The notes: a model not told the origin generated them from the letters alone. Counted from the first letter of the stretch, positions 16,288-31,047 are shown. The stretch: DNA of 64,000 nucleotides from an uncultured Clostridia bacterium (GCA_946529215.1 CAMMZC010000003.1:3976-67975); one strand, 5' to 3'. Translations and numbers: made by a program.

Positions 16288-16321
16288 TATATTTGTTTAG
16301 CACAAATATCATTTTAAACAT

Positions 16322-16397
<76 letters not shown>

Positions 16398-16402
16398 AAT
16401 AG

Positions 16403-16440
16403 AAACCTTGAAAACTTACGTTTTCAAGGTTTTTTATTTA
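16403..16440 (+). terminator. Rho-independent terminator after tRNA-fMet
   Basis: Hairpin aaaccttgaaaa-cttacg-ttttcaaggttt, then TTTTATTT. Confidence 0.75.
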
Positions 16441-16499
16441 ATAAAATTGTTAATACATTTGCAAATTTTAGTTAAGATATATATTTATTTTCTGATGCT

Positions 16500-18575
16500 T
16501 TATTGATTTTTTAATTTTAATATGTTGATTGTTTCCATAGTTTCTTTAGACTTCTCGTTATCTTTGCCATATACTTTGCATTGTAATTTGTATAATTTTT
16601 CGTATAACTCTAGCGAATTATTATATTTTTTCATTTTTTTATAAATACTAGCTAAATTATTTAAATTCCTTAATGTATTTGGATGAGTTTTCCCTAATGT
16701 TTCTTCACTCTTTTTATATGCTTCTTTTCCAAATTTTATAGCATTATCATAATTTTCTATATCACTATAATAAGTTGCAAGATTGTTTAACGATGTTAAT
16801 GTGTTAGGATGAGAGTCTCCCAATATTTCCTTTAATTTATTATAAACTATTTCACCTAATTTTACAGCTTTATTATAATTTCCCGTATGATTATAATAAT
16901 AAGAAAGATTATTTAAGCTTCTAAATGTATCTGGATGCTCATATCCTAATGTCTCTTTTCTATTTTTGTATACCTTTTCTCCTAACCTTATTGCTTCTTT
17001 ATAATCTTTTTTATAATTATAATAAATTGCAAGTCTGTTTAAACTTGTTAATGTATTTGGATGAGTTTTGCCTAATGTTTCTTTTCTTTTTTTATACACA
17101 TCTTTTCCGAGTTTTATTGCCATATCATAATTTCCTATATTACTGTAACTGACAGCTAGATTATTTAAACTAGTTAATGTATCAATATGAGTTTCTCCTA
17201 AACTTTCTTCTCTTTTTCTATATACTTCTTCTCCAAGTTTTATTGCTATATCATACTTTCCAATATCATCATAACCTCTCGCTATATTATTTAAACTATC
17301 TAATGTATATAAATTATTCTCTCCTAATACTTCTTTTTGGATTTTATAGCATTCATTGTTTACTTCCAATGCTTTGTTATAATCACCTGTATTTCTATAA
17401 GCAACAGCCAATTTAGTTAAACTTATCAATGTATTTAAATGTTTTTCTCCTAATTCTTTTTTATCTTTTTCATATACCTTTTTTTGCCACTCTAAAGCTT
17501 TTTTATAATCTAATTTTGTTCCTTTACCTTCTTCATATATATATACAAGCTCTTTCATTGCTTCTTTACATTCAAGATTTCCTGATTGTTCAAGCAGTTT
17601 TATTCCTTTTTCTTTATTTACTTCAACATCAATGCCATTTAAATATGCTAATCCTATAAAGTATAAGTGTTTTGGATCATCATTTTCCCTCCATGCTTCA
17701 TTTATTAAATACTTTTTTAAAGATTCACTTAAAAGCTCTGTATCATTTACTTTAATCGGAACAGGTATTTCTTTATATTTTTTTTGTAATTCTTCTTTAC
17801 TTGTATCTACCGCTTCAATTGGAACTATATTTTTACATTCTTTTTTAGCATTTGGATATTCTATTTTTTCCACATAGTTTTCTTCATTTACTAGATTTGG
17901 CGTTACAACCATTGCAAATAATTTACTTTTCTTCAAAGCTTCCTCTATTGACTCATTAAAATCTTGCCCTGGCTTTAAAAACTCATCATACCAAATTGCA
18001 ATATCTCTGCAAAATTCATTTTCATGAATTAAATGCATTATGTTTTCAGCATGTTTTTTGTCTTTTTTTCTATAACTTAAAAATATATATGCATCAAAAG
18101 CTTCTTGAACCTGTTTTCTCAATTCATCACTTACTAATACTGATTCTATATATTCTTTTAATTTACTTTTATATTTTTCTTCTCCAACAACTAACTTACT
18201 TAATGCTTGAAGGTTTCCACATTTTTCGTTAAAGTAGCTATCTATATTTGGCTCCATCATTATTGGCAAAATTGGAATATGATTATCCATTGCATATTGA
18301 AATTCTACTACTCTTGCATCACATTCTTCTGATATAAATTTCCATGTTACAGGTATCACAAATAAGTTTATTTGGCTCAAGTCATCTATAATTTCTCTTG
18401 AATTAATATTTTTATCAGCTTTATAATAAATTACACAATTTCTTATATCTAGAATTTCTTCAGTTATCTCTTCAAAATATTTATCAAAATCATTTTGATA
18501 GCAACAAAAATATACTCTTGATTTATCTTTTAGTTCTTTTCCTCTTGTTTTATATTTTAACTTTATTTCTTCCAT
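16500..18575 (-). CDS. Tandem TIR-like domains + TPR (TPR_10/12-type) repeat protein
   Basis: 691 aa. Residues about 160-300 match the TIR pattern (YIFLSYRKKD...IAIWYDEFLKPGQDF...FAMVVTPNLVNE). Residues about 15-150 are a second TIR/DUF4062-like module (RVYFCCYQNDFDKYF...). The C-terminal half holds about 8 TPR repeats ending in SLNNLA..Y/ LGK.HPNTL. Confidence 0.7.
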   Translation of the reverse strand: MEEIKLKYKTRGKELKDKSRVYFCCYQNDFDKYFEEITEEILDIRNCVIYYKADKNINSREIIDDLSQINLFVIPVTWKFISEECDARVVEFQYAMDNHIPILPIMMEPNIDSYFNEKCGNLQALSKLVVGEEKYKSKLKEYIESVLVSDELRKQVQEAFDAYIFLSYRKKDKKHAENIMHLIHENEFCRDIAIWYDEFLKPGQDFNESIEEALKKSKLFAMVVTPNLVNEENYVEKIEYPNAKKECKNIVPIEAVDTSKEELQKKYKEIPVPIKVNDTELLSESLKKYLINEAWRENDDPKHLYFIGLAYLNGIDVEVNKEKGIKLLEQSGNLECKEAMKELVYIYEEGKGTKLDYKKALEWQKKVYEKDKKELGEKHLNTLISLTKLAVAYRNTGDYNKALEVNNECYKIQKEVLGENNLYTLDSLNNIARGYDDIGKYDIAIKLGEEVYRKREESLGETHIDTLTSLNNLAVSYSNIGNYDMAIKLGKDVYKKRKETLGKTHPNTLTSLNRLAIYYNYKKDYKEAIRLGEKVYKNRKETLGYEHPDTFRSLNNLSYYYNHTGNYNKAVKLGEIVYNKLKEILGDSHPNTLTSLNNLATYYSDIENYDNAIKFGKEAYKKSEETLGKTHPNTLRNLNNLASIYKKMKKYNNSLELYEKLYKLQCKVYGKDNEKSKETMETINILKLKNQ

Positions 18576-18647
18576 AACAATACTCCTATCATAAAAATTC
18601 TCTACTATTTTGTAAATGGTAAATTATTTAAAAAAATAACAATGTTA

Positions 18648-19232
18648 TTAATTAGTGATTGATTTACACATATAAATCCAAATATAGCTCCACAAATTCC
18701 ACCGAATTAAATGAGAATCATGTGCTATATTATCTTTCTTTCTTAGATCTTTTATTTCATCTATAATATAAAATATTATTATTAATACTAGAGTTATTGG
18801 TATTTTATTTTCTGTAATATTAACAAATGCACTTAAAACAGTTAGCATAAAAGATATACAGCTTGCACCTTTAAGCCATTCTTTTCCTTTAATAAAATTG
18901 AAAATTCCAACCACAAATGCAGTTATTAATATCATAATTAATAAATTAACAGAACCGTACTTTTCTTCTATAAGAGGTCCGAGTAATAAAATTTTTAGAT
19001 AATTATTTGAAAGATGACTCCAATCAGCATGTCCAAGTATATGTGTAAATAATCTTATATAAGTTAATGGGTTTAGTAAAGACGCTCTTTCTGTCGAAAA
19101 TACACGTCTTGTAGATTTTCCTTTTGTAATTTTGTCTAATAGAAGCACACCAAGAGATATAAAGAACATTGTAAGAGTTACAACAGCATTATATTGAAAA
19201 TAGTCCATTATATTAATTTCTTGTATATTCAA
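18648..19232 (-). CDS. Rhomboid-family intramembrane protease-like membrane protein
   Basis: 194 aa, multi-TM. GHADWSHLSNN, GASCIS (GxSx) and AHDSHL motifs are rhomboid-like. The ORF-track start is TTG; an alternative ATG is at 19208. Confidence 0.5.
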   Translation of the reverse strand: MNIQEINIMDYFQYNAVVTLTMFFISLGVLLLDKITKGKSTRRVFSTERASLLNPLTYIRLFTHILGHADWSHLSNNYLKILLLGPLIEEKYGSVNLLIMILITAFVVGIFNFIKGKEWLKGASCISFMLTVLSAFVNITENKIPITLVLIIIFYIIDEIKDLRKKDNIAHDSHLIRWNLWSYIWIYMCKSITN

Positions 19233-19543
19233 TGTTATCTCTTCCCTTCTTTATTCACCTTTAATATATTTTTGTATATCTTTAACTGCTTTTTTATTTC
19301 TTCTTATTTCTCTTGCTCTATTGATATCTTCCTTATACAACTCTTTGCATCTTATTTATTCTATCTATAATATCTCTTATTTCTTCTTGGTTATATTCTT
19401 TCATAAACTACTCCTACTCATTTTCAAAATACTGACTAAACTGATTTTTTAATTCGTTTAAATCATCAAAATCTATCACATCTTCTTTAATTTTACCATA
19501 CCTTATGCATAAATGGGCCATGTATATTTTATTACTTTTTTTA

Positions 19544-22500
19544 TTATTCATTTATTTTTCTTATAACTATTTCATCTTTCTCTTTAATAACAAATTCATT
19601 CATTTCTTCTTTATCAATAAATTTATAATAATATTCTCCTAAAGGTAAATTTCTTGCACCTGCTTGGCCATTTTCATTGGTAGTTATTGTTATAATCTCA
19701 TCTTTATTGCTATCAAAAATCCTTATTTTTAAACCTACCTTAGGTTTATTATTTTTATCTTTAACTTGTATTGCAAATCTCCCTTTATAACGCTCTACTT
19801 TTATAACTGGATAAAAAGTTCTATTTTCGTCATCAATAGTAACTCTATATGTTGTTTCATCCATTATATAATTTCCTGTAAGACTAATTAACTTAAATAA
19901 ATACACAAATAAATAGCCATGACGCAAAGTAACATATGCTTTACCATCTCCATCTGTTACTACTTCAGTTAAATAATGTCCTTCTTTATCATAAATATAG
20001 AATGTTCCACCTTGAATTGGGTTACTTGCATCATCAACTAATGTAATAACTAGTTGATTTCTAGGATATATCAATTTAAAATTTGTTACATCTGCACCGT
20101 TAACATATACATATTTTGACATAAGTTCTTTATCCTTGTTATATTTGTCAACTAATGCGATTCTATACATTCCAACAGGAACTTTATAGTAGCTAATTTT
20201 GGCATCAGATCCAACAAATGACTGTCCTAATTTATTATCTGCACTATCATAAAGATTTACTGCATATCCTATAAGTGCATCCTCATTTAAATCAACAAAT
20301 TTTGCTTGAATTTCTCCTAAATAGCCCAGGTTCTTATTTGGAACAAATTCGCTAATATTTTGCTTTTTAACATTTAAAGCTTTAGATGTTTCTTCATCTG
20401 TCAATTCTTTGGCTATTTTAATTAATTCATTTGAAGCAAGATTTTCTGAAATTTCAATTCCAATATCTTTTAAAATTTTTTTTCTTAATTCTATAGCATC
20501 TTTCAATTGTTTTGCTTTAATCATTTCTTGTAAGATTTTGAATTGAAATAACTCATAATCTCCGACATTGTATTTTTCAAACTTTATTTTCTTAAATATT
20601 GCTTGATATTCCACACATTTTTCGTAGTTTTTAATTGCGTCCTTTGGTTTATTATTTTTGCTTTCAACTTCAGCTAATTTAGCATATATTTCGCTTAAAA
20701 AATAATCTCGTATAGCTCTACCATAAATATTATTTTCACTTATAAATTCATTATTATTTTTCACATAAGAAATAGCGTTTTTATATGCACTTGTTGCTTT
20801 TTTAAAATTAGTTTCCTTTAAACTATTTTCAGCTACTTCGTAATATTTAGTTTTCAAATCTTCTATTAATTCGTTATATTTTTCTGTTTGTTTTTTGTAG
20901 TTTTCTATTGCTTGATTTTTTTTATTTATTAAATTTTCAATTTCTTTTTTTGAACTTGTATTGTCTGGTAAAATCACAACTTTATTATTAATAACATCTA
21001 TTTCATCATCATAAAGCAAAATTAAATTTTTATACAAACCATATGTCTTATATATTTCTTCTAATTTATTAAAAGAATCAAACATAACCAAATTATAAAA
21101 TATAGGTTTTTCAAAAAGATTCTCTTTAACATAACATAGAATTTCATTATAAATACCAACAATTTCACTATAATCTTTTTCTACAAAACCAATTTTGTTG
21201 AATTTGTAATTAGCATACTTATAATAAAGGTCTATCTTGATTTCTTGTAAATCATCAAATTTTATAGAAAATTGATGATATTTAAACCATGATTTAATTG
21301 CCTTAAAATAATTATCTACAATTTTATTAAATAAACCAATATTTGTAAAATACTTAAATATTCCATATGAACTTCTAATAATAGAATATACAGCCACATC
21401 ATTTTGATTATATTTATTATTGTTTAAAGTTTTGATTATATCCGAATATATAAATATTGCTTTGTTTAAATTCTTTTTTCCCTCTTTTGTTTTTTCATCA
21501 TCAAAAAATTTTTCAGCTTCACTACAAAGTAAGTCAGCTTTAGCTAAATCTATTTCGGATTTAATAACTGTTAAATCTCTATGATTTTCAATATTTAATT
21601 CTATCTCATAAATATTATATAAAGATTTAATAGTATTTTTTGCTTTTTCAAAGTCACCACTTAATTCATAAAACTTTGATAGCTTTATTGCTAAATTCAT
21701 TGAGTAATCTATATGATTATATTCAGCCCAATCTAAATATTTTTGTATTAATTCTGCAGCTTTGCAATAATCTTCTTGTTTATTACAAAATTCTGCAAAT
21801 ATTAAAAAGGTATCTCTTTGTAAATTGTTATCTTCTTCGACTTTTATTGCTCTTTCATATGAGGCATAGATTTCTTTAACTCTATCTGGATTATTAATAT
21901 CTAAATTATATGTTTCAGCTCTTGATATTAATTCTTGTACAAATTCAGATAATTTCTTTCTTCCACTCTCCTGCTCTACTTCTATATGTACAATATCATC
22001 ATTAATTTCTTCAATATTAAGTATTTCTTTAGCAGATTCTAAGTCACCTCTTTCTAAGCATTTATACGCAGCAATTTGTTTCTTTGTAAGATTATTTTTC
22101 CCCGCTTCTTTAGAAAACTTTTTACTAAAATCAAATATTTGATTTTCTAAATTTTGAATATCTCTTTTATATTTATAATATTTCTCTGTAATTTCATCTA
22201 ATTTATTTGCTTCTTCTTTTGTATATTTTGTTTTATCAGATGATTTTAATTCCAAATATTCATCTTCAATTTTTTCAAATTTTTCTTTTAATTCAATTAA
22301 CTGCTCATTCTTAAAAAACATCGGAATTTTATCTAATACTAATATTTCCTCGCCATCTATACAAATGCTTCCATCAATTATTTCAATTGTTACATTTGAT
22401 GTTTTCATGTCATCGATTTTATTATTAATTTCATATTTAATACGATAAATATCAATATATTCACCATAGTAATGTTGCAAATTATCTCCAACATATTTAA

Positions 22501-23341
22501 TAAACTCATCTGCTTTTTTAGTTCTCTCTTTTACATCTTTTCTAACAAATGGTCTTAAATCAAGACTCTCATTTTCAATAAAATATTTATATGCATTATC
22601 AAAGTCTTTATATATTTTTTCGTCAATGTCTTTACCAACTATTAAAAATAATCCTGAACAATCTTTCAGTTGTTTTTCTGTTAGAGAAGTTATATCTTCA
22701 TTAGTAATAAAATTAAAATATACACGATGCTTTTTATATTTATCATTTATGTTCCTAATAAAATTACTAATTGCATATTTATCATTTTCTATATCTTTAT
22801 TTCCTTCAAGAAAAATAAAGTTATATTTTTTTAATTCTTCTTTTTCTAAATCTTCTTCATCAATTTTTTCAATACTATTATTTATTATTTCTTTAACCTT
22901 ATTATATAATTCTTCTTCTTCATCATATTCTTTTATTTTATTTTTAAATCCACCATTTAATACATCATTACCAAGTTTTTCTCTAAATTTAGCTACTGAA
23001 TCATCAGCATCACATTTTTTAAAGAATATAAACCTTCTTATACCTTTAACTTCTTTAGATACATCATATTCTTCAACAGTATATTCTCCTGCTCTTTTCC
23101 CAATTAGCAATATCATAACATCAGATTCTCTTAATTTTTGATTATATTGCTCTTGTTTTCTGCCTTTTACCATAGAATTATCTTCAAATTCACATTCAAA
23201 CAAATTAATCCTAATACCTTTTTCTAATAAGTCATCTTGCATTCTTCTTACTAAGTCGCCAATTTTATTTCTTTCAGTTTCAAATTCATTAATAGAAGAA
23301 GCTAAAAATATTTTTATTTCATTTTTATTATAACTTGGCAT
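19544..23341 (-). CDS. Large cytoplasmic multi-domain protein: two DUF4062/TIR-like modules + coiled-coil/TPR + C-terminal Cna-B/carboxypeptidase-regulatory-like beta-sandwich repeats
   Basis: The N-terminus IKIFLASSINEFETERNKIGDL...SDVMILLIGKRAGE fits the DUF4062 pattern. A second similar module follows (YNFIFLEGNKD...CSGLFLIVGKDIDE). The middle has TPR-like helical repeats. The C-terminal about 250 aa has repeats like TLVDDASNPIQGGTFYIYDKEGHY and GLKIRIFDSNKDE. No signal peptide. Likely start is ATG at 23341 (RBS GAGGA); the ORF-track start at 23356 is GTG. Confidence 0.6.
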   Translation of the reverse strand: MPSYNKNEIKIFLASSINEFETERNKIGDLVRRMQDDLLEKGIRINLFECEFEDNSMVKGRKQEQYNQKLRESDVMILLIGKRAGEYTVEEYDVSKEVKGIRRFIFFKKCDADDSVAKFREKLGNDVLNGGFKNKIKEYDEEEELYNKVKEIINNSIEKIDEEDLEKEELKKYNFIFLEGNKDIENDKYAISNFIRNINDKYKKHRVYFNFITNEDITSLTEKQLKDCSGLFLIVGKDIDEKIYKDFDNAYKYFIENESLDLRPFVRKDVKERTKKADEFIKYVGDNLQHYYGEYIDIYRIKYEINNKIDDMKTSNVTIEIIDGSICIDGEEILVLDKIPMFFKNEQLIELKEKFEKIEDEYLELKSSDKTKYTKEEANKLDEITEKYYKYKRDIQNLENQIFDFSKKFSKEAGKNNLTKKQIAAYKCLERGDLESAKEILNIEEINDDIVHIEVEQESGRKKLSEFVQELISRAETYNLDINNPDRVKEIYASYERAIKVEEDNNLQRDTFLIFAEFCNKQEDYCKAAELIQKYLDWAEYNHIDYSMNLAIKLSKFYELSGDFEKAKNTIKSLYNIYEIELNIENHRDLTVIKSEIDLAKADLLCSEAEKFFDDEKTKEGKKNLNKAIFIYSDIIKTLNNNKYNQNDVAVYSIIRSSYGIFKYFTNIGLFNKIVDNYFKAIKSWFKYHQFSIKFDDLQEIKIDLYYKYANYKFNKIGFVEKDYSEIVGIYNEILCYVKENLFEKPIFYNLVMFDSFNKLEEIYKTYGLYKNLILLYDDEIDVINNKVVILPDNTSSKKEIENLINKKNQAIENYKKQTEKYNELIEDLKTKYYEVAENSLKETNFKKATSAYKNAISYVKNNNEFISENNIYGRAIRDYFLSEIYAKLAEVESKNNKPKDAIKNYEKCVEYQAIFKKIKFEKYNVGDYELFQFKILQEMIKAKQLKDAIELRKKILKDIGIEISENLASNELIKIAKELTDEETSKALNVKKQNISEFVPNKNLGYLGEIQAKFVDLNEDALIGYAVNLYDSADNKLGQSFVGSDAKISYYKVPVGMYRIALVDKYNKDKELMSKYVYVNGADVTNFKLIYPRNQLVITLVDDASNPIQGGTFYIYDKEGHYLTEVVTDGDGKAYVTLRHGYLFVYLFKLISLTGNYIMDETTYRVTIDDENRTFYPVIKVERYKGRFAIQVKDKNNKPKVGLKIRIFDSNKDEIITITTNENGQAGARNLPLGEYYYKFIDKEEMNEFVIKEKDEIVIRKINE

Positions 23342-23383
23342 TCTTATTTTCCTCACTTATCTTATTACTTTTTATATATTACC

Positions 23384-25288
23384 CTATTCTGTAAAATCAT
23401 TTAACATCATTTTTACTATATCGTAATCACTTGATTTTAAATCTTTATTAATTCCCATACTTTGTAATTGATAAGAAACATTATCTAATTCTTCAAAAGG
23501 CACAAGAGCTGGGTGTCTTCTTCCTAAATAATCTCTGTGATCATTTAATATAGGATAATATCTTCTTACATCATCAATATTGGCTTTTATATACCCTATT
23601 GTTCTCATGTAGGCATTCCATCTATCATGTTCATTTTTTGCAAGCATTTCTTTTAATTCTTCTGTATAAATTTCTCTAAACATTTTCAAATTTTCTTTTA
23701 GATTTTTAGAATATTTTTCTCCTAATACAGAATACAATTTATATTTTACATGAAGTGCACTTGCTCTTGATGAACGTTTATTATATTCATTTAAATAATA
23801 ATCTGCAGAACTTCCACGATATGCTTTATGTATTTTTTCTCCAATTTTCTCAATTTCAGAATCAACTATTTTATTATCAAAATACATATCTTTTACACTG
23901 CCAAAAGCATTTATATCATATGTTGTTTCTTTTTCATTAATAAGCTTGTTTACTTGTTCTTTTTTATATTCATTTTGAATCCAAATATTTATTATTGGCT
24001 TTCTCTCATAATTTCTAATAAATAATCTTCTTAAATCTATTGCTGTATCTAAATTTTTACTATCTGTCTCCATTGATACTAATATATAATTTATGTCATT
24101 TACCTGTTCTATAGCCTCTATTGCTTTTGGAGATTTTATATCTGCATTAACAAATGTAATATCATAATTATTTAAAATGTCAGGTGTTTCAATTTCAAAA
24201 TTTTTCTTAATTTCGTCTGCTTTTATATCAATTACTAATGCTTTAAATCTATAACCTATCATCATTCCACACCATAAAGCATCTTTTAAAAATTCTTTTC
24301 CTACTTGTCCACAACCAACAATAAGCAATGATATAACATTATCAATTGCTCCTTCATAAATTGGCTTTTTATCTAATAAATTGAAAATTGCTCTTTCTTT
24401 TTCATTTACAATTTCTACATTAACAAACTCTTTATCAGATAAATCTAATTTTATAAGTTCTTGTTCGATTTTATCTTCAACTTCTGCATCTACAACATCT
24501 TTATCTGATAATCCTAATTTTGTCAGTATTTTTTTTCTTTCTTCTAATTTTATTTTATTAATAATATCTCTATTTGCCGAGTCTAAAACTATTGGCGCTT
24601 CTTCAGTATTGTTTATAACATATACTTTAATCTTTTGGTTTTTGTATTTTTCCATAATTTCTAACGCATCATTAAGATTTTGTTCTTCATTTTCAGAAAT
24701 CATATATATAGTTATATTATTATCATAATTATTTAAATTAATTTCGCTCATTTTTTCGGAAAGCTTTATAGATTTAAAAGAATCTGTTTTACCATTTCTT
24801 TTATATTCTACATTAGTAAATATAACTGCATTATTATTGTTCACATAACCTTCTGCAATCATAACAGATTTCTCATTCATTTCTGAAAAAAAGTATAAAT
24901 TTTTATTTTTTAATCTCTTAATTTTAATACCTTTAAATAAATCGTTTAAAATAGCAATTAAAGTACTTACAGTAAAAAAAGGCAAAGCAATTAAAAAGAT
25001 ATTTATCCAAATAAAATATCCAATTCCAAAAGCACTATGTGTATTAATTTTTGATAAAACATCTATATCTTCGTTTAGTGTTATACTTTTTAATGCATAA
25101 TAAAATGTATTAGTTACTTTGATGGCGATATTACTATAATCTAAAAGTGGAAACACCAAAATTCCCAAACAAATAAGTCCTATTCCCATTATTATAAAAA
25201 ATCTATATTTAGTGTCTATTTTGTAATTTTTTAATAATACAAATCCAATTATTGTTACCACAATACTTAAACTAAAAGTTATTACCAT
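23384..25288 (-). CDS. Membrane protein with 2-3 N-terminal TM helices, Rossmann (TrkA_N/RCK-like) domain and C-terminal RyR domain
   Basis: 634 aa. N-terminal hydrophobic helices. VGCGQVGKEF is a GxGxxG motif. C-terminal ...HDRWNAYMRTIGY...RRHPALVPFEELD resembles the RyR (PF02026) pattern. The start codon abuts the stop of the upstream RyR gene. Confidence 0.55.
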   Translation of the reverse strand: MVITFSLSIVVTIIGFVLLKNYKIDTKYRFFIIMGIGLICLGILVFPLLDYSNIAIKVTNTFYYALKSITLNEDIDVLSKINTHSAFGIGYFIWINIFLIALPFFTVSTLIAILNDLFKGIKIKRLKNKNLYFFSEMNEKSVMIAEGYVNNNNAVIFTNVEYKRNGKTDSFKSIKLSEKMSEINLNNYDNNITIYMISENEEQNLNDALEIMEKYKNQKIKVYVINNTEEAPIVLDSANRDIINKIKLEERKKILTKLGLSDKDVVDAEVEDKIEQELIKLDLSDKEFVNVEIVNEKERAIFNLLDKKPIYEGAIDNVISLLIVGCGQVGKEFLKDALWCGMMIGYRFKALVIDIKADEIKKNFEIETPDILNNYDITFVNADIKSPKAIEAIEQVNDINYILVSMETDSKNLDTAIDLRRLFIRNYERKPIINIWIQNEYKKEQVNKLINEKETTYDINAFGSVKDMYFDNKIVDSEIEKIGEKIHKAYRGSSADYYLNEYNKRSSRASALHVKYKLYSVLGEKYSKNLKENLKMFREIYTEELKEMLAKNEHDRWNAYMRTIGYIKANIDDVRRYYPILNDHRDYLGRRHPALVPFEELDNVSYQLQSMGINKDLKSSDYDIVKMMLNDFTE

Positions 25289-25579
25289 TTATAGTTCCTC
25301 CTTAATTATTTTAAATCCAAGTTTTTGTATTAATTTCAATGTTTCAATAGCTGTATTTCTATCATATTCTTTTTCGCTTTCTGGCAAACTTTCATAAGAT
25401 ACTAAACAAGGTGTAGTTTTCAATTTATCATCTCGTACTATTCCATATTTCCAACCTTCATTTATTCTTCCTATAGCCCATACTTCATGTGTATTCTTAG
25501 CTAGTTTCTCCGCTAGTTTTAAAATTTCCTCACTTAAAATAACATCCTTTGTATCTACAGGTTTTGGTTGATAGTTCAT
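25289..25579 (-). CDS. RyR (ryanodine-receptor repeat) domain protein
   Basis: 96 aa. LAKNTHEVWAIGRINEGWKYGIVRDDKLKTTPCLVSYESLPESEKEYDRNTAIETLKLI matches the RyR-domain consensus (W...GW.YG..RD......P.LVPYE.L.E.EKE.DR). Confidence 0.7.
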   Translation of the reverse strand: MNYQPKPVDTKDVILSEEILKLAEKLAKNTHEVWAIGRINEGWKYGIVRDDKLKTTPCLVSYESLPESEKEYDRNTAIETLKLIQKLGFKIIKEEL

Positions 25580-25904
25580 ATTTTTCCTCCTTTTTTAACT
25601 TTCTTCATAAAACTTAAATTCTTCTTCATATGTGTGTAAAAAAAATTATATATGTAAGTGGATTTAAAAGTAATTCTTCATCGTCTGTTACATCTTCATC
25701 ATATTTTTGTCTATTATATCATAAAATTTCATATTTGTCTTGTTTTAAAGTCAAAAAATAAGTTTTTTATCTTATACTTTCACAAACTCTCTCACAACTA
25801 TTTGGCTAAAAAAAGGGCAAAATGTTTACATTCACACACCATTTATAAAAAATATATTGATATTTCAGTAAATTTTGGGTTATTTGTCTTGTCCTCATCA
25901 ACCA

Positions 25905-25948
25905 AATAAAAGCCCTGAAAATATTAATTTTTCAAGGCTTATTTTTTT
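25905..25948. terminator. Bidirectional terminator hairpin overlapping stop of DUF1189-like gene
   Basis: agccctgaaaa-tattaatt-ttttcaaggct followed by T7 on the plus strand and a U-rich stretch on the minus strand. Confidence 0.5.
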
Positions 25949-26819
25949 CATTTCTTTTTTGTTTCCACAAGATTAAATACAAATAAACAAATATTATTCC
26001 AATACTTATTATATCCATAATAGAAATTCTAAATTTTGTAAAATAACTCATTATCATATATGTAACAAAAACTATCATAGACAAGGTAGAAGCGTAAATT
26101 GTATTCATTAATGATTCTTTATAAGTCCATTTGCTTTTTAAGATTTTAGTAACAAGCCACAAACCTACAGAAATTAATGAAATATATATAACATACATCA
26201 GAGCTATACTTCCGAAATATACAACAAAATATTGTGCTATATAATATGAAAATGAAGTTCTTTTTCTTAAATATTCTAAAACATCTTTTTTGCCATATTC
26301 ATAGTTTAAATCTTTTATAAAATTTGAAGAAATCTCAGAATATTTTTGTGATACAAGTCCTTCTTCATTTTTGTTTTCATGATTGTATTTATTTGAGATT
26401 AAAACATATTCTTCTTTTAGAAATATAATAACATTATTCCTATCTGTTGCTAGATCTTTATATTGTTCTATCGCTTCTTGTTTTTCAAGAAGCGGATTTA
26501 TAACAATTACATTCCTAAAAAATTCAATTATTTTTTCATCATCTAATATAGTTGCCTCTTCGTTTTCAAGTGATAAAATATTTTCTTTAAATTTAATTTC
26601 AGGTAATTTTTCATCTAAATAATTAATTGAATTTTTTACAACATCTAATTGTAAAAAAGTTGCGATTATAGCTACAATTAAAGCTAATATACATACTACA
26701 TAGAAGAAATACTTTATTGCCTTGCTAATACCTTGTTTTCTGAGTTCCTTATATTTGCTTGGTTTTGCAATTGAATACCATATTTTCTTAAAAAAATTTA
26801 TTTTTATATTTTCTTCCAA
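25932..26819 (-). CDS. DUF1189-like membrane protein
   Basis: 295 aa. N-terminus FFKKIWYSIAKPSKYKELRKQGISKAIKYFFYVV plus multiple TM helices resembles the DUF1189 family. Confidence 0.45.
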   Translation of the reverse strand: MEENIKINFFKKIWYSIAKPSKYKELRKQGISKAIKYFFYVVCILALIVAIIATFLQLDVVKNSINYLDEKLPEIKFKENILSLENEEATILDDEKIIEFFRNVIVINPLLEKQEAIEQYKDLATDRNNVIIFLKEEYVLISNKYNHENKNEEGLVSQKYSEISSNFIKDLNYEYGKKDVLEYLRKRTSFSYYIAQYFVVYFGSIALMYVIYISLISVGLWLVTKILKSKWTYKESLMNTIYASTLSMIVFVTYMIMSYFTKFRISIMDIISIGIIFVYLYLILWKQKRNEKNKP

Positions 26820-26984
26820 ATCAGATCATTCCTCTCTTAAATACTTATAGTTGTTTAATTCTTCTTTTCTTAAACTAAATCATTATTTTAAATACACATA
26901 TATAATAGCACTTGAATAAAAAAAATGCAATCAAAACTTTAAAAATAAAAAGATTTTTATGTAATCAAATTTTTAAGCGCAAAA

Positions 26985-27195
26985 AATCCCCGCTGTAGCC
27001 GTAACTTGTGCCAAAATTTTTAACAACCTGCTCTCACAAACAGGTGGGTGCCTACCTAAATACTCATGGGCTTCTTACTACTATTATATTGCAAAAAGTG
27101 TAAGCTTGCACGCCATATTCAGAGTTCAGCCCCTCTTTAAACTTGTAGGTTCTAAAAATTCTGCAATACGCACTATGCAGGGGTTTTGTTTAATT
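26985..27195 (+). ncRNA. Candidate structured small RNA of unknown class (6S-like or other)
   Basis: About 210-bp non-coding segment with clearly higher GC than its flanks, lying between two minus-strand genes. The 5' end CCCCGCTGTAG can pair with the 3' end CTATGCAGGGG, followed by TTTT. Internal hairpins include GGTGGG-TG-CCTACC and CCTAC...GTAGG. GU pairs favour the plus strand. Confidence 0.3.
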
Positions 27196-27427
27196 ATTTT
27201 ATTGTTATATTTATATTATCATATAATAGCATTTTTTTCAAATAATTTAAGGTGCTAAATTGCTTTATTAATGTTTTTTATTATGGATTAATCTTATTCT
27301 TATTAATTTATTCTCTTTTAATCTTCATTTTTTGCCACTTTATATTTTTAATTTTTCACTAGTATTATAGCTAAGAATCTTTTATTTTGCTTGAGTTGAA
27401 AATTAAAGCATTATATGAAAATATATC

Positions 27428-29746
27428 TTAAATTCTACTAGAATTGCAAGAAAAATATATAACTTGATATTTTTTCGTAAATTCTTGTAAAATTTCAAGT
27501 GCTTTTGAGGTTTTTGATTCATCTAAATTTACAAATGGGTCATCAAGCACAACAAATGGTGTTTCGCCACTAAACAAAGCATCTATTAAACTAAATCTCA
27601 TACAGATATAAATTAAGTCTTTGTATCCAGTGCTAAAAGTTTTTATTTCTTTTTGAGAACCATTTACTTCTATTTTTACATCTAAATTTGTATCAACAGA
27701 AGTTTTTAATTCTTTGGTATCAATCAAAGATAAATATTTATTAAATCCAATAACCATACTTTTTAGATAATTTGATGAAAAGTTTTCTTTTGATGTTTTT
27801 AAAAGTTCTTCTGTTTTGTTTAAAATTTTATATTTTTCTTCTAAATTGCTTATTTCTCCTTTTAAATTTTCTATATCACTTTCTAAATATTCACTTTCAT
27901 CAATTCTATTTTCTAAAACCTCTATTTGATTTTTTATTTGATTTTTTTCGTCATTTAGCATATCAATTTTGTTATTTAAAACATCTATTTTATGCTTGAT
28001 TTCTTCTTCAGAAGCGGATATTTCTTCTATATTTTTAAATTCCTCAACATTATTTTCTTTTTCATATTTTTCTTTTTTGTCAATTATATCTTTTAGTTGA
28101 TTTTTAGATTCTTCAAATTGATTTATTTTTATTTTCAAATCTTGTATTAGGTCTGTATATGATTTGTCTATACTTATATAATATGTTTTAAAGTCATCTT
28201 CTATTTCATTTTTTAATTTTTCAAGATTAATTTTTAAATTTTGTAAAGACACATCTTTTGATATTTTGTTTTTTAATAGTGTTTTATAATTACTGTATTC
28301 TGTTTTTAAACTAGTTAAATCTAAAATCTTATTTGAACTTTCTGCTGAATAATATTGTTTTAAGAAATTTTCTACATTATGGTTTATTTCTTCTTTTTTA
28401 TTTTGCATATCTTCTATTTCTTTTTGAAGATTTAAAATTTCTTTGCTCAAGCTAGAAATTTTACGTCTTTTGTTTTTAGATAAAAAACTGAATAAACCAA
28501 AAAGTATACCTGTAGAAATTAGACTTATTCCTGCTATTTTTTGTATATTTGTAATTATCAAACCACTGCCTATTATTATTAATAATAAAGATAATATTAT
28601 TGTAATTAACACCTTTTTACGTTTTTTATTAACTATGTCTAAATCATTTTGTTTTTGTTCTTTCTCTTTTTTCTTTGTATTGACTTTTTCTTCTATATCT
28701 TGTATTTGCGAATATTCAAAAATATTTTTATCTATTTCTTCTATTGAAATATTTCCATTTTTATATTTATTTTGCAGTACTTCTAATTCTTTTGCTTCTT
28801 CATCTGTTATTTTGCAATTTGATATTTCTAATTTTGTTTTTTCTATTTCATAATTTTTATTAGCTAGATTTTCTAAAAATGAATTTGTAGGAATCCCATT
28901 TGAGAAAAATTTTTCAAAATTTTTATATTCTTCTTGGTAAGAAGAATATTTAGTTAGTATTGAGTCATAAACTTCTTTTTTGGCTTTAACTCTATCTTGT
29001 TCAATCTTTTTTTTAAGTAGTTTTTGTTCCTCAATTCTTTGATTTTCTAAGGTATGTATTTCATTTATTTTTTCTTCTAATTGATTTTTTCTTGTTTCAA
29101 AATTTTCAATATCTATTTTGCTATTTTCAAATTTTCTTTGTAAATCATATAATTTAGTCTTTTTTTCGTCTATTAGTCCACCTTGTCCTCTATCTTTTTT
29201 ATATATTTTTTTTGCTTCATTGAGTTTCTTTAATGCTTCTTCTGATGTGTTTATATCATTATCACTTTCTAACATATTTGTAAGTTTAGCATTAATGCTG
29301 TCTTCCATCTCAATCTGTATTTGCCCTTGTGGTATGTATGTACTTCTTTCATAAGCACTTTTGTTTATTTTAAATATTTCTTCTCCGATATTTTCTGAAT
29401 AATCTTTGCTCTCCAAATTTGTTTCTAAATTATATAATTTAAATGTATCATCAGTAGCTTTTTTTCCAAATGTTCTTTCTATTCTATATTTTTTGCTATT
29501 TATTTCAAATTCAATACTTCCGCCATATATTCCTCCTTGCCATGGAATATATCTTTTTCTATCTGATTTTTCAAATCTTGCATTTGCTTGAGTATCTAAC
29601 CCATAAAACATAGATTTAATAAATGTTGCAAAAGTTGTTTTTCCAAATCCATTATCTTGTTTTATTGTATTTAATCCATCTTGAAAATCATAACTAAAAT
29701 CTTGCAATTTACCAAAATTTTGTATATGGCATTTTAATAATTTCAT
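27428..29746 (-). CDS. YhaN/SbcC-like AAA ATPase with long coiled coils and central TM segment
   Basis: 772 aa. N-terminal Walker A GFGKTTF. Extensive coiled coil. Internal hydrophobic stretch VLITIILSLLLIIIGSGLII. C-terminal VVLDDPFVNLDE Walker B/D-loop. Confidence 0.7.
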   Translation of the reverse strand: MKLLKCHIQNFGKLQDFSYDFQDGLNTIKQDNGFGKTTFATFIKSMFYGLDTQANARFEKSDRKRYIPWQGGIYGGSIEFEINSKKYRIERTFGKKATDDTFKLYNLETNLESKDYSENIGEEIFKINKSAYERSTYIPQGQIQIEMEDSINAKLTNMLESDNDINTSEEALKKLNEAKKIYKKDRGQGGLIDEKKTKLYDLQRKFENSKIDIENFETRKNQLEEKINEIHTLENQRIEEQKLLKKKIEQDRVKAKKEVYDSILTKYSSYQEEYKNFEKFFSNGIPTNSFLENLANKNYEIEKTKLEISNCKITDEEAKELEVLQNKYKNGNISIEEIDKNIFEYSQIQDIEEKVNTKKKEKEQKQNDLDIVNKKRKKVLITIILSLLLIIIGSGLIITNIQKIAGISLISTGILFGLFSFLSKNKRRKISSLSKEILNLQKEIEDMQNKKEEINHNVENFLKQYYSAESSNKILDLTSLKTEYSNYKTLLKNKISKDVSLQNLKINLEKLKNEIEDDFKTYYISIDKSYTDLIQDLKIKINQFEESKNQLKDIIDKKEKYEKENNVEEFKNIEEISASEEEIKHKIDVLNNKIDMLNDEKNQIKNQIEVLENRIDESEYLESDIENLKGEISNLEEKYKILNKTEELLKTSKENFSSNYLKSMVIGFNKYLSLIDTKELKTSVDTNLDVKIEVNGSQKEIKTFSTGYKDLIYICMRFSLIDALFSGETPFVVLDDPFVNLDESKTSKALEILQEFTKKYQVIYFSCNSSRI

Positions 29747-29764
29747 GTTAATCCTCCATTTGTA

Positions 29765-30850
29765 TTATAATAAATCTTCTCCTGAAAGTGCTTTAATTCC
29801 AGTGCTTATAACTTTATTTTTTTCTTCCTCTGTTAAATCTTTTTGATCTAATACAAGCCTTATAAATTCACCTTTTAAAGAAATATCATTTTGAAATTTC
29901 ATATAATCTATTTTGATATTTGGCTTATCTTCGATTTTTAGAAAAAAGAAATCTGATTCAAATTTTTTTGTTAAATAATCTATATCTCTTTCTTCTCCTA
30001 TCTCAATATCTCCGCCTAAAACTAATTTTACTAAGCTTGTTCCAGGAATACCCTTTAATTTTTCTGCTATGGATTGTTCAATTTCGTTATTTTCCTTTAA
30101 TCCTGTTAAGTCTGCATGAACTTCATATAATGTTCTATACGAAAAAGGTATAAACTCAGTTTTTATCTTATTATCTTCTATATTTAGTAGCACGAATCCC
30201 TTTTCTCCACATTCATCAAATCCTCTTCCTTCTAGACAACCAGAATAACAATATACTCCCCTATTGTCTAATTTTTCTTTTTTGTATGAATGAATATGTC
30301 CTAATGCAAGATAATCTATATTTTTGTTTTTAAGCTCTTTTAAATTTATTATCTCAGCTTTATCTTTTATAGATGTTTCTGACTCTTGACCATGCATAAC
30401 AACTATGTTTAACTTATTTTTTTCTAGAAATAAAGAATTATATATTTCATAATTTGGAGTATTTCCAAACTCTATTCCAGAAATTGTTATATTGCCATAT
30501 TCATAAGTTTGCCAATTATTTCTGTTAAATGTTTTTAAATTTGATGGTAATTCTTCATCTTCATCTATAAATCCGGCTTCATCATGATTTCCTTTTAAAT
30601 AGACAAAATCTATTTCAGGATTAGATATAATAGCATTTTTAACAGTCTTTTTAGCTTTAACAGTAACTGCTTTTTTATCAAATAAATCTCCTGCAATTAT
30701 TATTATTTTAACATCATTTTCTTTTGCATATTGTACCATTCTATCGAATGTAAGCAAAATTTCATTTTTTCTTTCTCTTGCTTTTTCTTTATCTAAGTTT
30801 GTTTCCATTTTAGAATCAAGATGTAAATCACTACAATGAATTATTTTCAT
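29765..30850 (-). CDS. Metallophosphoesterase, SbcD/YhaO-like DNA repair exonuclease
   Basis: MKIIHCSDLHLD... calcineurin-like phosphoesterase motifs (GDLFD, GNHD, GHIH). Start taken at ATG 30850; the ORF-track N-terminal extension was rejected. Confidence 0.78.
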   Translation of the reverse strand: MKIIHCSDLHLDSKMETNLDKEKARERKNEILLTFDRMVQYAKENDVKIIIIAGDLFDKKAVTVKAKKTVKNAIISNPEIDFVYLKGNHDEAGFIDEDEELPSNLKTFNRNNWQTYEYGNITISGIEFGNTPNYEIYNSLFLEKNKLNIVVMHGQESETSIKDKAEIINLKELKNKNIDYLALGHIHSYKKEKLDNRGVYCYSGCLEGRGFDECGEKGFVLLNIEDNKIKTEFIPFSYRTLYEVHADLTGLKENNEIEQSIAEKLKGIPGTSLVKLVLGGDIEIGEERDIDYLTKKFESDFFFLKIEDKPNIKIDYMKFQNDISLKGEFIRLVLDQKDLTEEEKNKVISTGIKALSGEDLL

Positions 30851-31047
30851 ATTTACTGACATTCCTTTCCTGCAAGGCACAAAATTTGATTAAAATAACT
30901 GCTTTTTCAGTTATTTTCAAACTTGCCTTGCTTTTCTAGAAGTTGACTAAAAGAAATTCTGCCCAATTTCTTTTTCAAAATATATCCTAACAAAAAAACA
31001 AAAAAATGTCAATAGTTTTTCGAACATTTTTTTGTTTTCTTTTTTTA

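Follow-up and report, generated by a model that had tools for sequence, protein, structure and literature searches.

The window analysed here is a stretch of 64,000 nucleotides (nt) from an uncultured Clostridia bacterium (GCA_946529215.1 CAMMZC010000003.1:3976-67975), in which a gene on the minus strand, at positions 19544..23341, encodes a protein of 1265 amino acids (aa) that carries a DUF4062-type, TIR-like domain at its N-terminus and that is likely to act as a sensor in anti-phage defence. In minus-strand order, the genes of the region encode an SbcD-like protein, an SbcC-like protein, a DUF1189 protein, a 96-aa RyR-domain protein, a 634-aa protein, the 1265-aa protein, a rhomboid and a 691-aa TIR_2-TPR protein, followed by rplU and rpmA. 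The extent of the target gene (1265 codons plus stop) is based on its open frame, a ribosome-binding site and a public gene call. The longest open frame is slightly longer, with 1270 codons (19544..23356, minus strand), and starts with a GTG at 23356 that overlaps a GAGGA Shine-Dalgarno sequence (23350..23354, minus strand, read from the sequence) located 8 nt 5' of an ATG at 23341. Because of this overlap, the real product is 1265 aa long, and it is 100% identical to the public gene call P0001. The first-pass annotation of this DNA had placed the gene correctly at 19544-23341, and only the length that it gave for the product, 1270 aa, was wrong. Residue numbers throughout are those of the 1265-aa protein.

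The DNA of the gene has a G+C content of 24-25%, in a genome of about 26%, and the protein has a high content of K, E, I and N, in line with this base composition of 24-25% G+C. A 3.8-kb frame at 24% G+C with homologues that are 67-78% identical cannot be a chance open reading frame. The protein has no membrane segment (top 19-residue Kyte-Doolittle mean 1.17), no signal peptide, as had been noted before, and no LPXTG sortase motif at its C-terminus (...IVIRKINE), and it is thus predicted to be cytoplasmic. A scan of the protein against NCBIfam gave no match. The source contig and the contigs of the closest homologues are metagenome assemblies.

Domain organisation of the 1265-aa protein

From the N- to the C-terminus, the protein is made up of a DUF4062 domain (module 1), a degenerate DUF4062 domain (module 2), a beta-hairpin with a stalk of helices, a helical region that resembles TPR weakly and three CnaB sandwiches. 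This agrees with the first-pass annotation for the two DUF4062 modules and the C-terminal CnaB repeats, whereas the TPR that it listed between them are present in degenerate form only.

DUF4062 is a TIR-like NADase domain, and KpSwz, the Swarozyc protein, hydrolyses NAD+ to ADP-ribose in a reaction that requires E97 (Osinski et al., 10.64898/2026.05.01.722283). KpSwz has a small beta-sheet and helical stalks beneath its TIR-like heads, is activated when an auxiliary domain binds the phage portal, and causes abortive infection (10.64898/2026.05.01.722283). Ibarra-Chavez et al. describe Eva01 (Evangelion), which consists of a DUF4062 core (F11, E87-Y88) and an auxiliary region and whose activity is associated with NAD+ loss (10.64898/2026.06.25.731849). 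Both proteins have been shown to defend by abortive infection through depletion of NAD+, and both depend on the Glu and on an auxiliary sensor region (10.64898/2026.05.01.722283, 10.64898/2026.06.25.731849).

Module 1 (residues 7-158; 22868..23323, minus strand) is the presumed catalytic NADase. It was assigned by its match to Pfam DUF4062 (PF13271; 30.1 bits, gathering cut-off 24.7), by its TIR/NDT-like, five-stranded alpha/beta fold and by its identity (39-56%) to stand-alone DUF4062 genes of 144-169 aa. Its YTVEEY motif (23066..23083, minus strand), located by alignment of module-1 relatives, lies in the sequence GEYTVEEY (family form GxYTxEEY); here E91-Y92 is invariant in all module-1 relatives and aligns with the catalytic E-Y of Eva01 (E87-Y88) and with E97 of KpSwz. 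F12, in the first strand (IKIFLASS), is invariant in 23 aligned sequences, and its position suggests that it is the counterpart of Eva01 F11.

Module 2 (residues 171-311; 22409..22831, minus strand) has no Pfam match of its own, and was recognised by aligning its alignment with that of module 1 (hhalign, 96.8% probability, E = 2.4e-10) and by its DUF4062-like fold in AlphaFold2. The catalytic Glu is missing from this module: its place in the alignment is taken by K245-D246-F247 (22601..22609, minus strand), and the Asp is found in all five fused orthologues.

Below the two heads lie beta-hairpins (residues 319-335) and a long helical stalk (346-479; together 21905..22387, minus strand), as judged by alignment and the AlphaFold2 fold, and this hairpin and stalk are conserved across the whole DUF4062-TPR family. 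The helical region that follows (residues 480-985; 20387..21904, minus strand) contains degenerate TPR-like repeats and a coiled-coil-like stretch. The earlier description of this part as TPR is right in that it is helical and TPR-like, with sub-threshold TPR matches in all five relatives and a match to the STIP1 TPR in the PDB (E = 0.0028); all of the profile matches, however, fall under the Pfam cut-offs, the best being TPR_12 at 21.5 bits against 30.1.

The C-terminus is formed by three CnaB/prealbumin-like beta-sandwiches (residues 1008-1091, 1096-1184 and 1186-1264; 19550..20320, minus strand), identified with Pfam, AlphaFold2 and Foldseek, which bear out the Cna-B-like repeats read in the first-pass annotation. 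Pfam SpaA matches the block with 36 bits (cut-off 23.1), the AlphaFold2 model of residues 1008-1264 has three seven-strand sandwiches at a predicted local distance difference test (pLDDT) score of 80, and the Foldseek hits are headed by the B. anthracis TIE protein (PDB 6fwv, E = 8.5e-21), followed by Gram-positive pilins and SdrD B domains. A profile of residues 521-1265 matched 3175 proteins; a single 50%-identity cluster covered the full query, and the remaining matches were to the sandwich repeats only. Most of the matches listed were very large multi-repeat proteins. In two of the closest, P0036 and P0039, a signal peptide, a thioester domain (Pfam TED) and 7-8 SpaA repeats are combined with an LPQTG motif and its membrane anchor, and the three CnaB domains of the 1265-aa protein align in order with three consecutive repeats of P0039 (40% identity, E = 1e-53).

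The likeness to the TIE LPXTG adhesins and pilins (PDB 6fwv; P0039) is thus one of CnaB/SpaA fold and of about 40% identity over three consecutive domains; the 1265-aa protein differs from them in having no export signal, no sortase motif and no isopeptide Lys. In these repeats, certain Lys, Glu and Asn positions form what we take to be the isopeptide triad. All three are invariant in six P0039 repeats, whereas the Lys is replaced in each of the 12 cytoplasmic CnaB domains (from the 1265-aa protein, P0002, P0005 and P0104), Glu and Asn are mostly replaced too, and the triad is complete in none. The possibility that isopeptide bonds are kept in the cytoplasmic domains was rejected on account of the missing Lys. 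The CnaB block thus consists of adhesin-stalk domains that were recruited into the cytoplasm and relieved of their cross-links. The first-pass annotation had remarked on the oddity of normally extracellular Ig-like domains in a cytoplasmic protein; this oddity is real, and is explained by the relationship of the block to adhesin repeats and the loss of the isopeptide residues. A tblastn search with the CnaB block against 50,697 phage records gave one weak match (27%, E = 4e-5), and hence no evidence of a phage origin.

The 1265-aa protein resembles KpSwz, as described, in its N-terminal DUF4062 domain, which contains a catalytic Glu and sits above beta-strands and a helical stalk, and in its C-terminal auxiliary sensor, and abortive infection would be the expected outcome. 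The sequences are too distant for direct matching. The 1265-aa protein also differs in having two DUF4062 modules, one active-looking and one degenerate, in the presence of RyR partner genes at its locus and in a far larger sensor of about 790 aa, composed of TPR-like helices and three CnaB domains. With Eva01 it shares the DUF4062 core, an N-terminal aromatic residue, the E-Y motif and a diversified auxiliary region, whereas Eva01 is short, plasmid-borne and has a small auxiliary region.

Single, split and fused forms of the family

The full fused architecture was found in 5 protein clusters only (67-100% identity), and occurs in none of 185,579 GTDB species representatives, among which module 1 has a best match of 50% identity. 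Hidden Markov models of the helical and CnaB regions gave no match in 67 related genome loci, and the sensor is therefore specific to a small clade and to the protein P0104 described below. The wider family has a common plan, in which DUF4062 is followed by the hairpin and stalk and then by a C-terminal repeat region, and is common in gut Clostridia, Lachnospiraceae, Oscillospiraceae, Acutalibacteraceae, Bacteroidales and Eggerthellaceae. Canonical TPR_10/TPR_12 arrays make up the C-terminal part of 50 of the 54 other family members. A similar layout is found in the eukaryotic NPHP3 (TPR_10/12), where a DUF4062-type head is likewise followed by TPR, and the TPR_NPHP3 model matches 39 of 54 bacterial family members. 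NPHP3, however, has a NACHT-type ATPase between its head and the TPR, where the bacterial family has just the hairpin and stalk.

The family occurs in three gene forms. In the single form there is one long protein, with a DUF4062 domain whose [YF]TxEEF motif is intact in nearly all cases. In the split form (loci L006, L007, L009, L012, L014, L017 and L018), a stand-alone DUF4062 gene of 144-169 aa with the motif YTxEE[YF] adjoins the gene for a long protein, either upstream or downstream of it, and the DUF4062-like domain of this long partner lacks at least the YT of [YF]TxEEF and often the catalytic Glu. In the fused form, represented by the 1265-aa gene, the long protein carries the small enzyme at its N-terminus, in the same chain. 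The split and fused forms are linked by P0104, a protein of 1180 aa found with the profile of residues 521-1265, which begins at module 2 and has the same stalk, helical region and three CnaB domains, at 34-37% identity to the 1265-aa protein. Its gene is preceded, with a 4-nt overlap, by a 156-aa DUF4062 gene that is 48-56% identical to module 1, and the locus shares the gene neighbourhood of the fused genes. We regard this pair as the decisive link between the two forms and, judging by the sequences, the 1265-aa protein is a single-chain version of a system that takes two genes in its relatives. The existence of split and fused forms also suggests a role for module 2, which may be a pseudo-enzyme that holds the active subunit and acts as the docking partner of module 1. 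The pairing of the two modules would, by analogy, be an asymmetric version of the symmetric TIR-like dimer of KpSwz.

Across related contigs, the target gene is 34-78% identical, compared with 59-82% for the 634-aa gene and 83-87% for the rhomboid gene. Among the five fused orthologues, the most variable parts are CnaB domain 2 (mean identity 52%) and the helical region (59%), and the least variable are module 2 (85%) and the stalk (84-85% for these two parts). Variable CnaB and helical parts mounted on a conserved module 2 and stalk fit the pattern of a target-binding arm on a conserved transducer. The 'diversification under conflict' suggested in the first-pass annotation is supported by this divergence of the gene relative to the rhomboid gene, by the concentration of variability in the sensor parts, and by the demonstration that DUF4062 proteins are anti-phage NADases.

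Tandem arrays of 2-4 DUF4062-stalk-TPR paralogues per contig, a further sign of conflict, were seen at L019/L023 (an Eggerthellaceae contig), L053, L066 and L014, with catalytic motifs that are intact in some copies and degenerate in others. The neighbours of family loci point the same way and include Abi_2, TIR-TPR, toxin-antitoxin and NERD genes; at L006, a RelB / YafQ-ParE toxin-antitoxin pair (295-880) lies directly 5' of the split DUF4062 system of P0007.

RyR-type genes and the surrounding locus

Upstream of the target gene lie two genes related to RyR domains. The nearer, 42 nt away (23384..25288, minus strand), encodes the 634-aa protein, a probable partner with four membrane helices, a TrkA_N-like Rossmann domain and a RyR-like C-terminus (EHxRW...HPxL), as defined by profiles and locus comparison. 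Abutting it, and assigned by the same comparison and by Pfam, is the gene for the 96-aa RyR-domain protein (25289..25579, minus strand; PF02026, 119.7 bits). The 96-aa protein corresponds to residues 288-386 of a 387-aa Abi_2-RyR fusion at L004 and L076 (89-92% identity); the window (25289-25931 compared) lacks the Abi_2 half, and the free-standing RyR domain has its own Met.

We searched all six-frame open reading frames of the fetched loci (1.05 Mb) for RyR domains, and every match lay within 3.2 kb of a DUF4062 family gene, several of them 13-35 nt upstream. About a quarter of the loci (17 of 71) have a RyR or a RyR-like/634-like gene; these include L004, L012-L017, L026, L029, L036, L038, L039, L043, L051 and L076, and come from Lachnospiraceae, Clostridiaceae, Acutalibacteraceae, Ruminococcus, Eggerthellaceae and Bacteroidales, so that both Firmicutes and Bacteroidota are among the phyla. 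The core of the 634-aa protein, in which a TrkA_N-like Rossmann domain precedes a RyR-like region that conserves EHxRW and HPxL, is joined to different modules at different loci: to four membrane helices in the window and at L004, L005, L012, L014, L015, L017 and L076, to a Card1-type endonuclease at L026 and L039, to a protein kinase together with a Card1-type endonuclease at L042 and to a kinase alone at L019. Canonical RyR is fused to Abi_2 at L004 and L076. Effector modules swapped on a ligand-binding domain usually mark effectors that are activated by a signal, as in CBASS, Thoeris and type III CRISPR.

Lopez Rivera et al. found that RyR-domain proteins of phages either bind 2'/3' cyclic ADP-ribose, at nanomolar affinity, or convert it to ADP-ribose by cleavage, through residues that in RyDEP are H75, W78, H100 and D117, and that RyR domains also bind ADP-ribose (PMC13232231). 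Since RyR domains bind cyclic ADP-ribose, a Thoeris-like signalling arm is suggested. Like RyDEP, the 96-aa protein has a PF02026 domain that keeps the H-x-x-W and the Asp of the ligand/catalytic site. RyDEP is a phage counter-defence enzyme or sponge, whereas the copies described here are host-encoded, lie beside a TIR-like NADase and are often fused to effectors. A link between DUF4062 and RyR genes is mentioned neither by Lopez Rivera et al. nor in the two DUF4062 papers (PMC13232231, 10.64898/2026.05.01.722283, 10.64898/2026.06.25.731849), and our literature search gave nothing further.

The arrangement resembles Thoeris (ThsB and ThsA) in placing a TIR-type, NAD+-processing sensor beside nucleotide-binding-domain proteins with swappable effector modules. 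It differs in that the enzyme is DUF4062 and not a canonical TIR, and the putative receptor domain is RyR/TrkA_N-like and not SLOG or Macro; the messenger, too, is only proposed. Pfam and PADLOC scans of the neighbours identified no ThsA-type domain and TIR_2 matched module 1 with E = 0.06 only, which argues against membership in Thoeris itself. A functional analogy to Thoeris via the RyR domains is conceivable.

On the minus strand within 16300-27500, the only terminator-like hairpins are at 25940-25910, before the RyR gene, and at 16432-16403, after the 691-aa gene; none is predicted from 25910 to 16432, which is weak evidence in AT-rich DNA. The RyR, 634-aa, 1265-aa, rhomboid and 691-aa genes bracketed by the hairpins would fit a single long transcript. 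Between the target and rhomboid genes, the 312-nt spacer contains, by comparison with related loci, deletion scars of three genes (19336..19521, minus strand), with translated remnants of 76% identity over 25 aa, 82% over 17 aa and 52% over 23 aa. In related contigs the source genes (about 200 aa, about 370 aa and sigma-like) sit between the target and rhomboid genes and diverge quickly. In the genome of P0005, two NERD-domain genes and AAA_14/DUF4143 genes lie 3' of the rhomboid gene (L002, 17803-23747), and the flank beyond the rhomboid gene is therefore also variable.

Profile matches divide the 691-aa protein (16500-18575, minus strand) into a TIR_2 domain (residues 164-257), seven TPR_12 units and a Sel1 repeat. 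The first 160 residues of the protein show a weak resemblance to this TIR_2 domain (E = 0.01), so that a tandem TIR is weakly evidenced, and PADLOC gave weak TIR matches on the protein. Among the related loci, the gene is present in this genome only. The first-pass annotation had seen in it a paralogue of the target protein. BLASTP, however, finds no similarity between the two (E = 1.2), and their TIR-type domains belong to different Pfam families (TIR_2 and DUF4062). The conserved rhomboid gene separates the two genes, and no homologue of the 691-aa TIR region is present in 75 other fetched loci, including L002 and L076, which extend past the rhomboid gene. The 691-aa gene was rejected as a partner on the basis of the BLASTP result and of the absence of its TIR region from these loci. 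The layout shared by the two proteins (tandem TIR-like, then TPR) thus appears to be a parallel design and not paralogy, and the 691-aa gene is probably a separate defence-type gene. The idea of a two-component system stands in another form, in the separate module-1 gene of relatives and in the RyR partner genes.

At 27428-30880, a gene for an SbcD-like phosphoesterase (371 aa) adjoins one for an SbcC/Rad50-like ATPase (772 aa). The coiled coil of the ATPase contains hydrophobic segments midway along it, and the phosphoesterase has a far sub-threshold match (E = 8e-5) to an NCBIfam 'anti-phage phosphoesterase' model.

A candidate defence system and its alternatives

On balance, we favour a reading in which the 1265-aa gene encodes a cytoplasmic anti-phage DUF4062 protein, in single-chain form, that works as follows. 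The variable C-terminal arm (TPR-like helices and three CnaB sandwiches) would bind a protein made during infection, and the change would be relayed through the conserved hairpin and stalk, much as the stalks of KpSwz reposition the TIR-like heads. Module 2, which has lost the catalytic Glu, would be a built-in docking partner for module 1 with its F12 and E91-Y92; the assembled module-1 sites would then cleave NAD+, an activity suggested by that demonstrated for the family, and the loss of NAD+ would stop the infected cell. An ADP-ribose-type product may in addition be read by the RyR-type domains of the putatively co-transcribed 634-aa membrane protein, a step that we place a little below an even chance, while the 96-aa RyR protein could act as a buffer or off-switch in a Thoeris-like manner. 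That the 1265-aa protein is a defence-type DUF4062 NADase sensor is likely by analogy with its characterised relatives, from which both the activity and the immune role are drawn; if it is, functional coupling to the RyR genes is conceivable, with the balance tipping slightly the other way.

A number of findings weigh against this reading. A sequence search of the PDB with module 1 gave no match even at E = 10, and a tblastn search of PLSDB (72,556 plasmids) found one Acaryochloris (cyanobacterial) DUF4062 gene only and none in Staphylococcus or Enterococcus, and thus no close relationship to plasmid-borne proteins of the Eva01 type. Without a match to solved structures or to Evangelion-type plasmids, module 1 represents a distant lineage to which the activity is extrapolated. 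A PADLOC scan of the target and five neighbours gave only a spurious CorA-like match on the target. KpSwz yields plain ADP-ribose and kills by NAD+ depletion (10.64898/2026.05.01.722283), and a signalling product is therefore not established for any DUF4062 protein, the characterised products being ADP-ribose and nicotinamide only. In the 96-aa protein, the second ligand His of RyDEP is a Thr. The L002/L003 orthologue is without the RyR and 634-aa genes, and about three quarters of the family loci have no RyR gene within the fetched flanks.

The last of these points would be expected if the 1265-aa protein acted autonomously by Swarozyc-like NAD+ depletion, sensing and killing alone, with the RyR and 634-aa genes forming a separate system or regulators in the same defence island. 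KpSwz and Eva01 are themselves single-gene systems that act through NAD+ depletion. We nevertheless find this explanation doubtful, given that RyR-type genes are adjacent and co-oriented in 17 loci from Firmicutes and Bacteroidota, in some cases only 13-35 nt away, that the RyR-like core swaps effector modules as signal receptors do, and that RyR domains bind NAD-derived signals. A pairing of the 1265-aa and 691-aa proteins as paralogous sensor and effector, as modelled in the first-pass annotation, is largely refuted and very improbable: although both begin with a TIR-type N-terminus followed by helical repeats, and no terminator is predicted between their genes, they have neither sequence similarity nor a Pfam family in common, their genes are separated by a conserved rhomboid gene, and the 691-aa TIR region is absent from the 75 other loci.

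A non-immune role in the cytoplasm, as a housekeeping enzyme of NAD or nucleotide metabolism or as a scaffold, has been proposed for some eukaryotic DUF4062 proteins, and DUF4062 also occurs in TEP1 and NPHP3 (10.64898/2026.05.01.722283). The chromosomal position of the locus between core genes and the lack of a real PADLOC match would suit such a role, yet a gene with so patchy a distribution (5 clusters, none among the species-representative genomes), with fast divergence, domain swapping, tandem paralogues and defence-type neighbours makes it quite improbable. That the protein is instead an exported adhesin or toxin, with CnaB domains on the cell surface and a TIR-like domain delivered to other cells, is suggested by the 40% identity of the CnaB block to the repeats of LPXTG thioester adhesins. 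This is hardly credible in a protein without a signal peptide, membrane segment or LPXTG, in which the Lys that is invariant in the adhesin repeats is gone from all 12 domains and the N-terminal enzyme, stalk and sensor follow the layout of the cytoplasmic family.

Building on the favoured reading of a cytoplasmic anti-phage protein, a more far-reaching joint model can be put forward tentatively, and we think it the less probable outcome by some way. It would be a Thoeris-like signalling defence in which NAD+ is converted to an ADP-ribose-type messenger that is read by host RyR/TrkA_N receptors coupled to killing modules that can be exchanged, namely the 634-aa membrane protein in the window and a Card1-type nuclease, a kinase or Abi_2 at other loci, with the small RyR protein as a buffer or off-switch. 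The sensor arm would in this model be an integrated decoy, a cytoplasmic copy of the cell's own surface-adhesin stalk without isopeptide bonds, that catches new phage receptor-binding proteins.

DUF4062 was recognised as a family of defence NADases only in 2026, and the forms studied are short, single-gene systems. While DUF4062 anti-phage NADases are thus a known kind, what is new here is the tandem of an active and a degenerate head made by gene fusion, the adhesin-derived sensor and the RyR-type partners, of which the latter two are, to our knowledge, undescribed in the literature. The progression from one gene, through separate genes for an enzyme and a pseudo-enzyme sensor, to a fusion is a natural series that points to how TIR-like heads pair. 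The recruitment of extracellular adhesin domains into a cytoplasmic immune sensor is a clear case of its kind, and raises the testable idea of a receptor decoy. Finally, because RyR domains have just been found to bind cyclic ADP-ribose, the recurrent link between a TIR-like NADase and host RyR proteins with varied effectors makes a possible new signalling branch of bacterial immunity directly testable, and may bear on the original role of the RyR repeat domain in animal channels.

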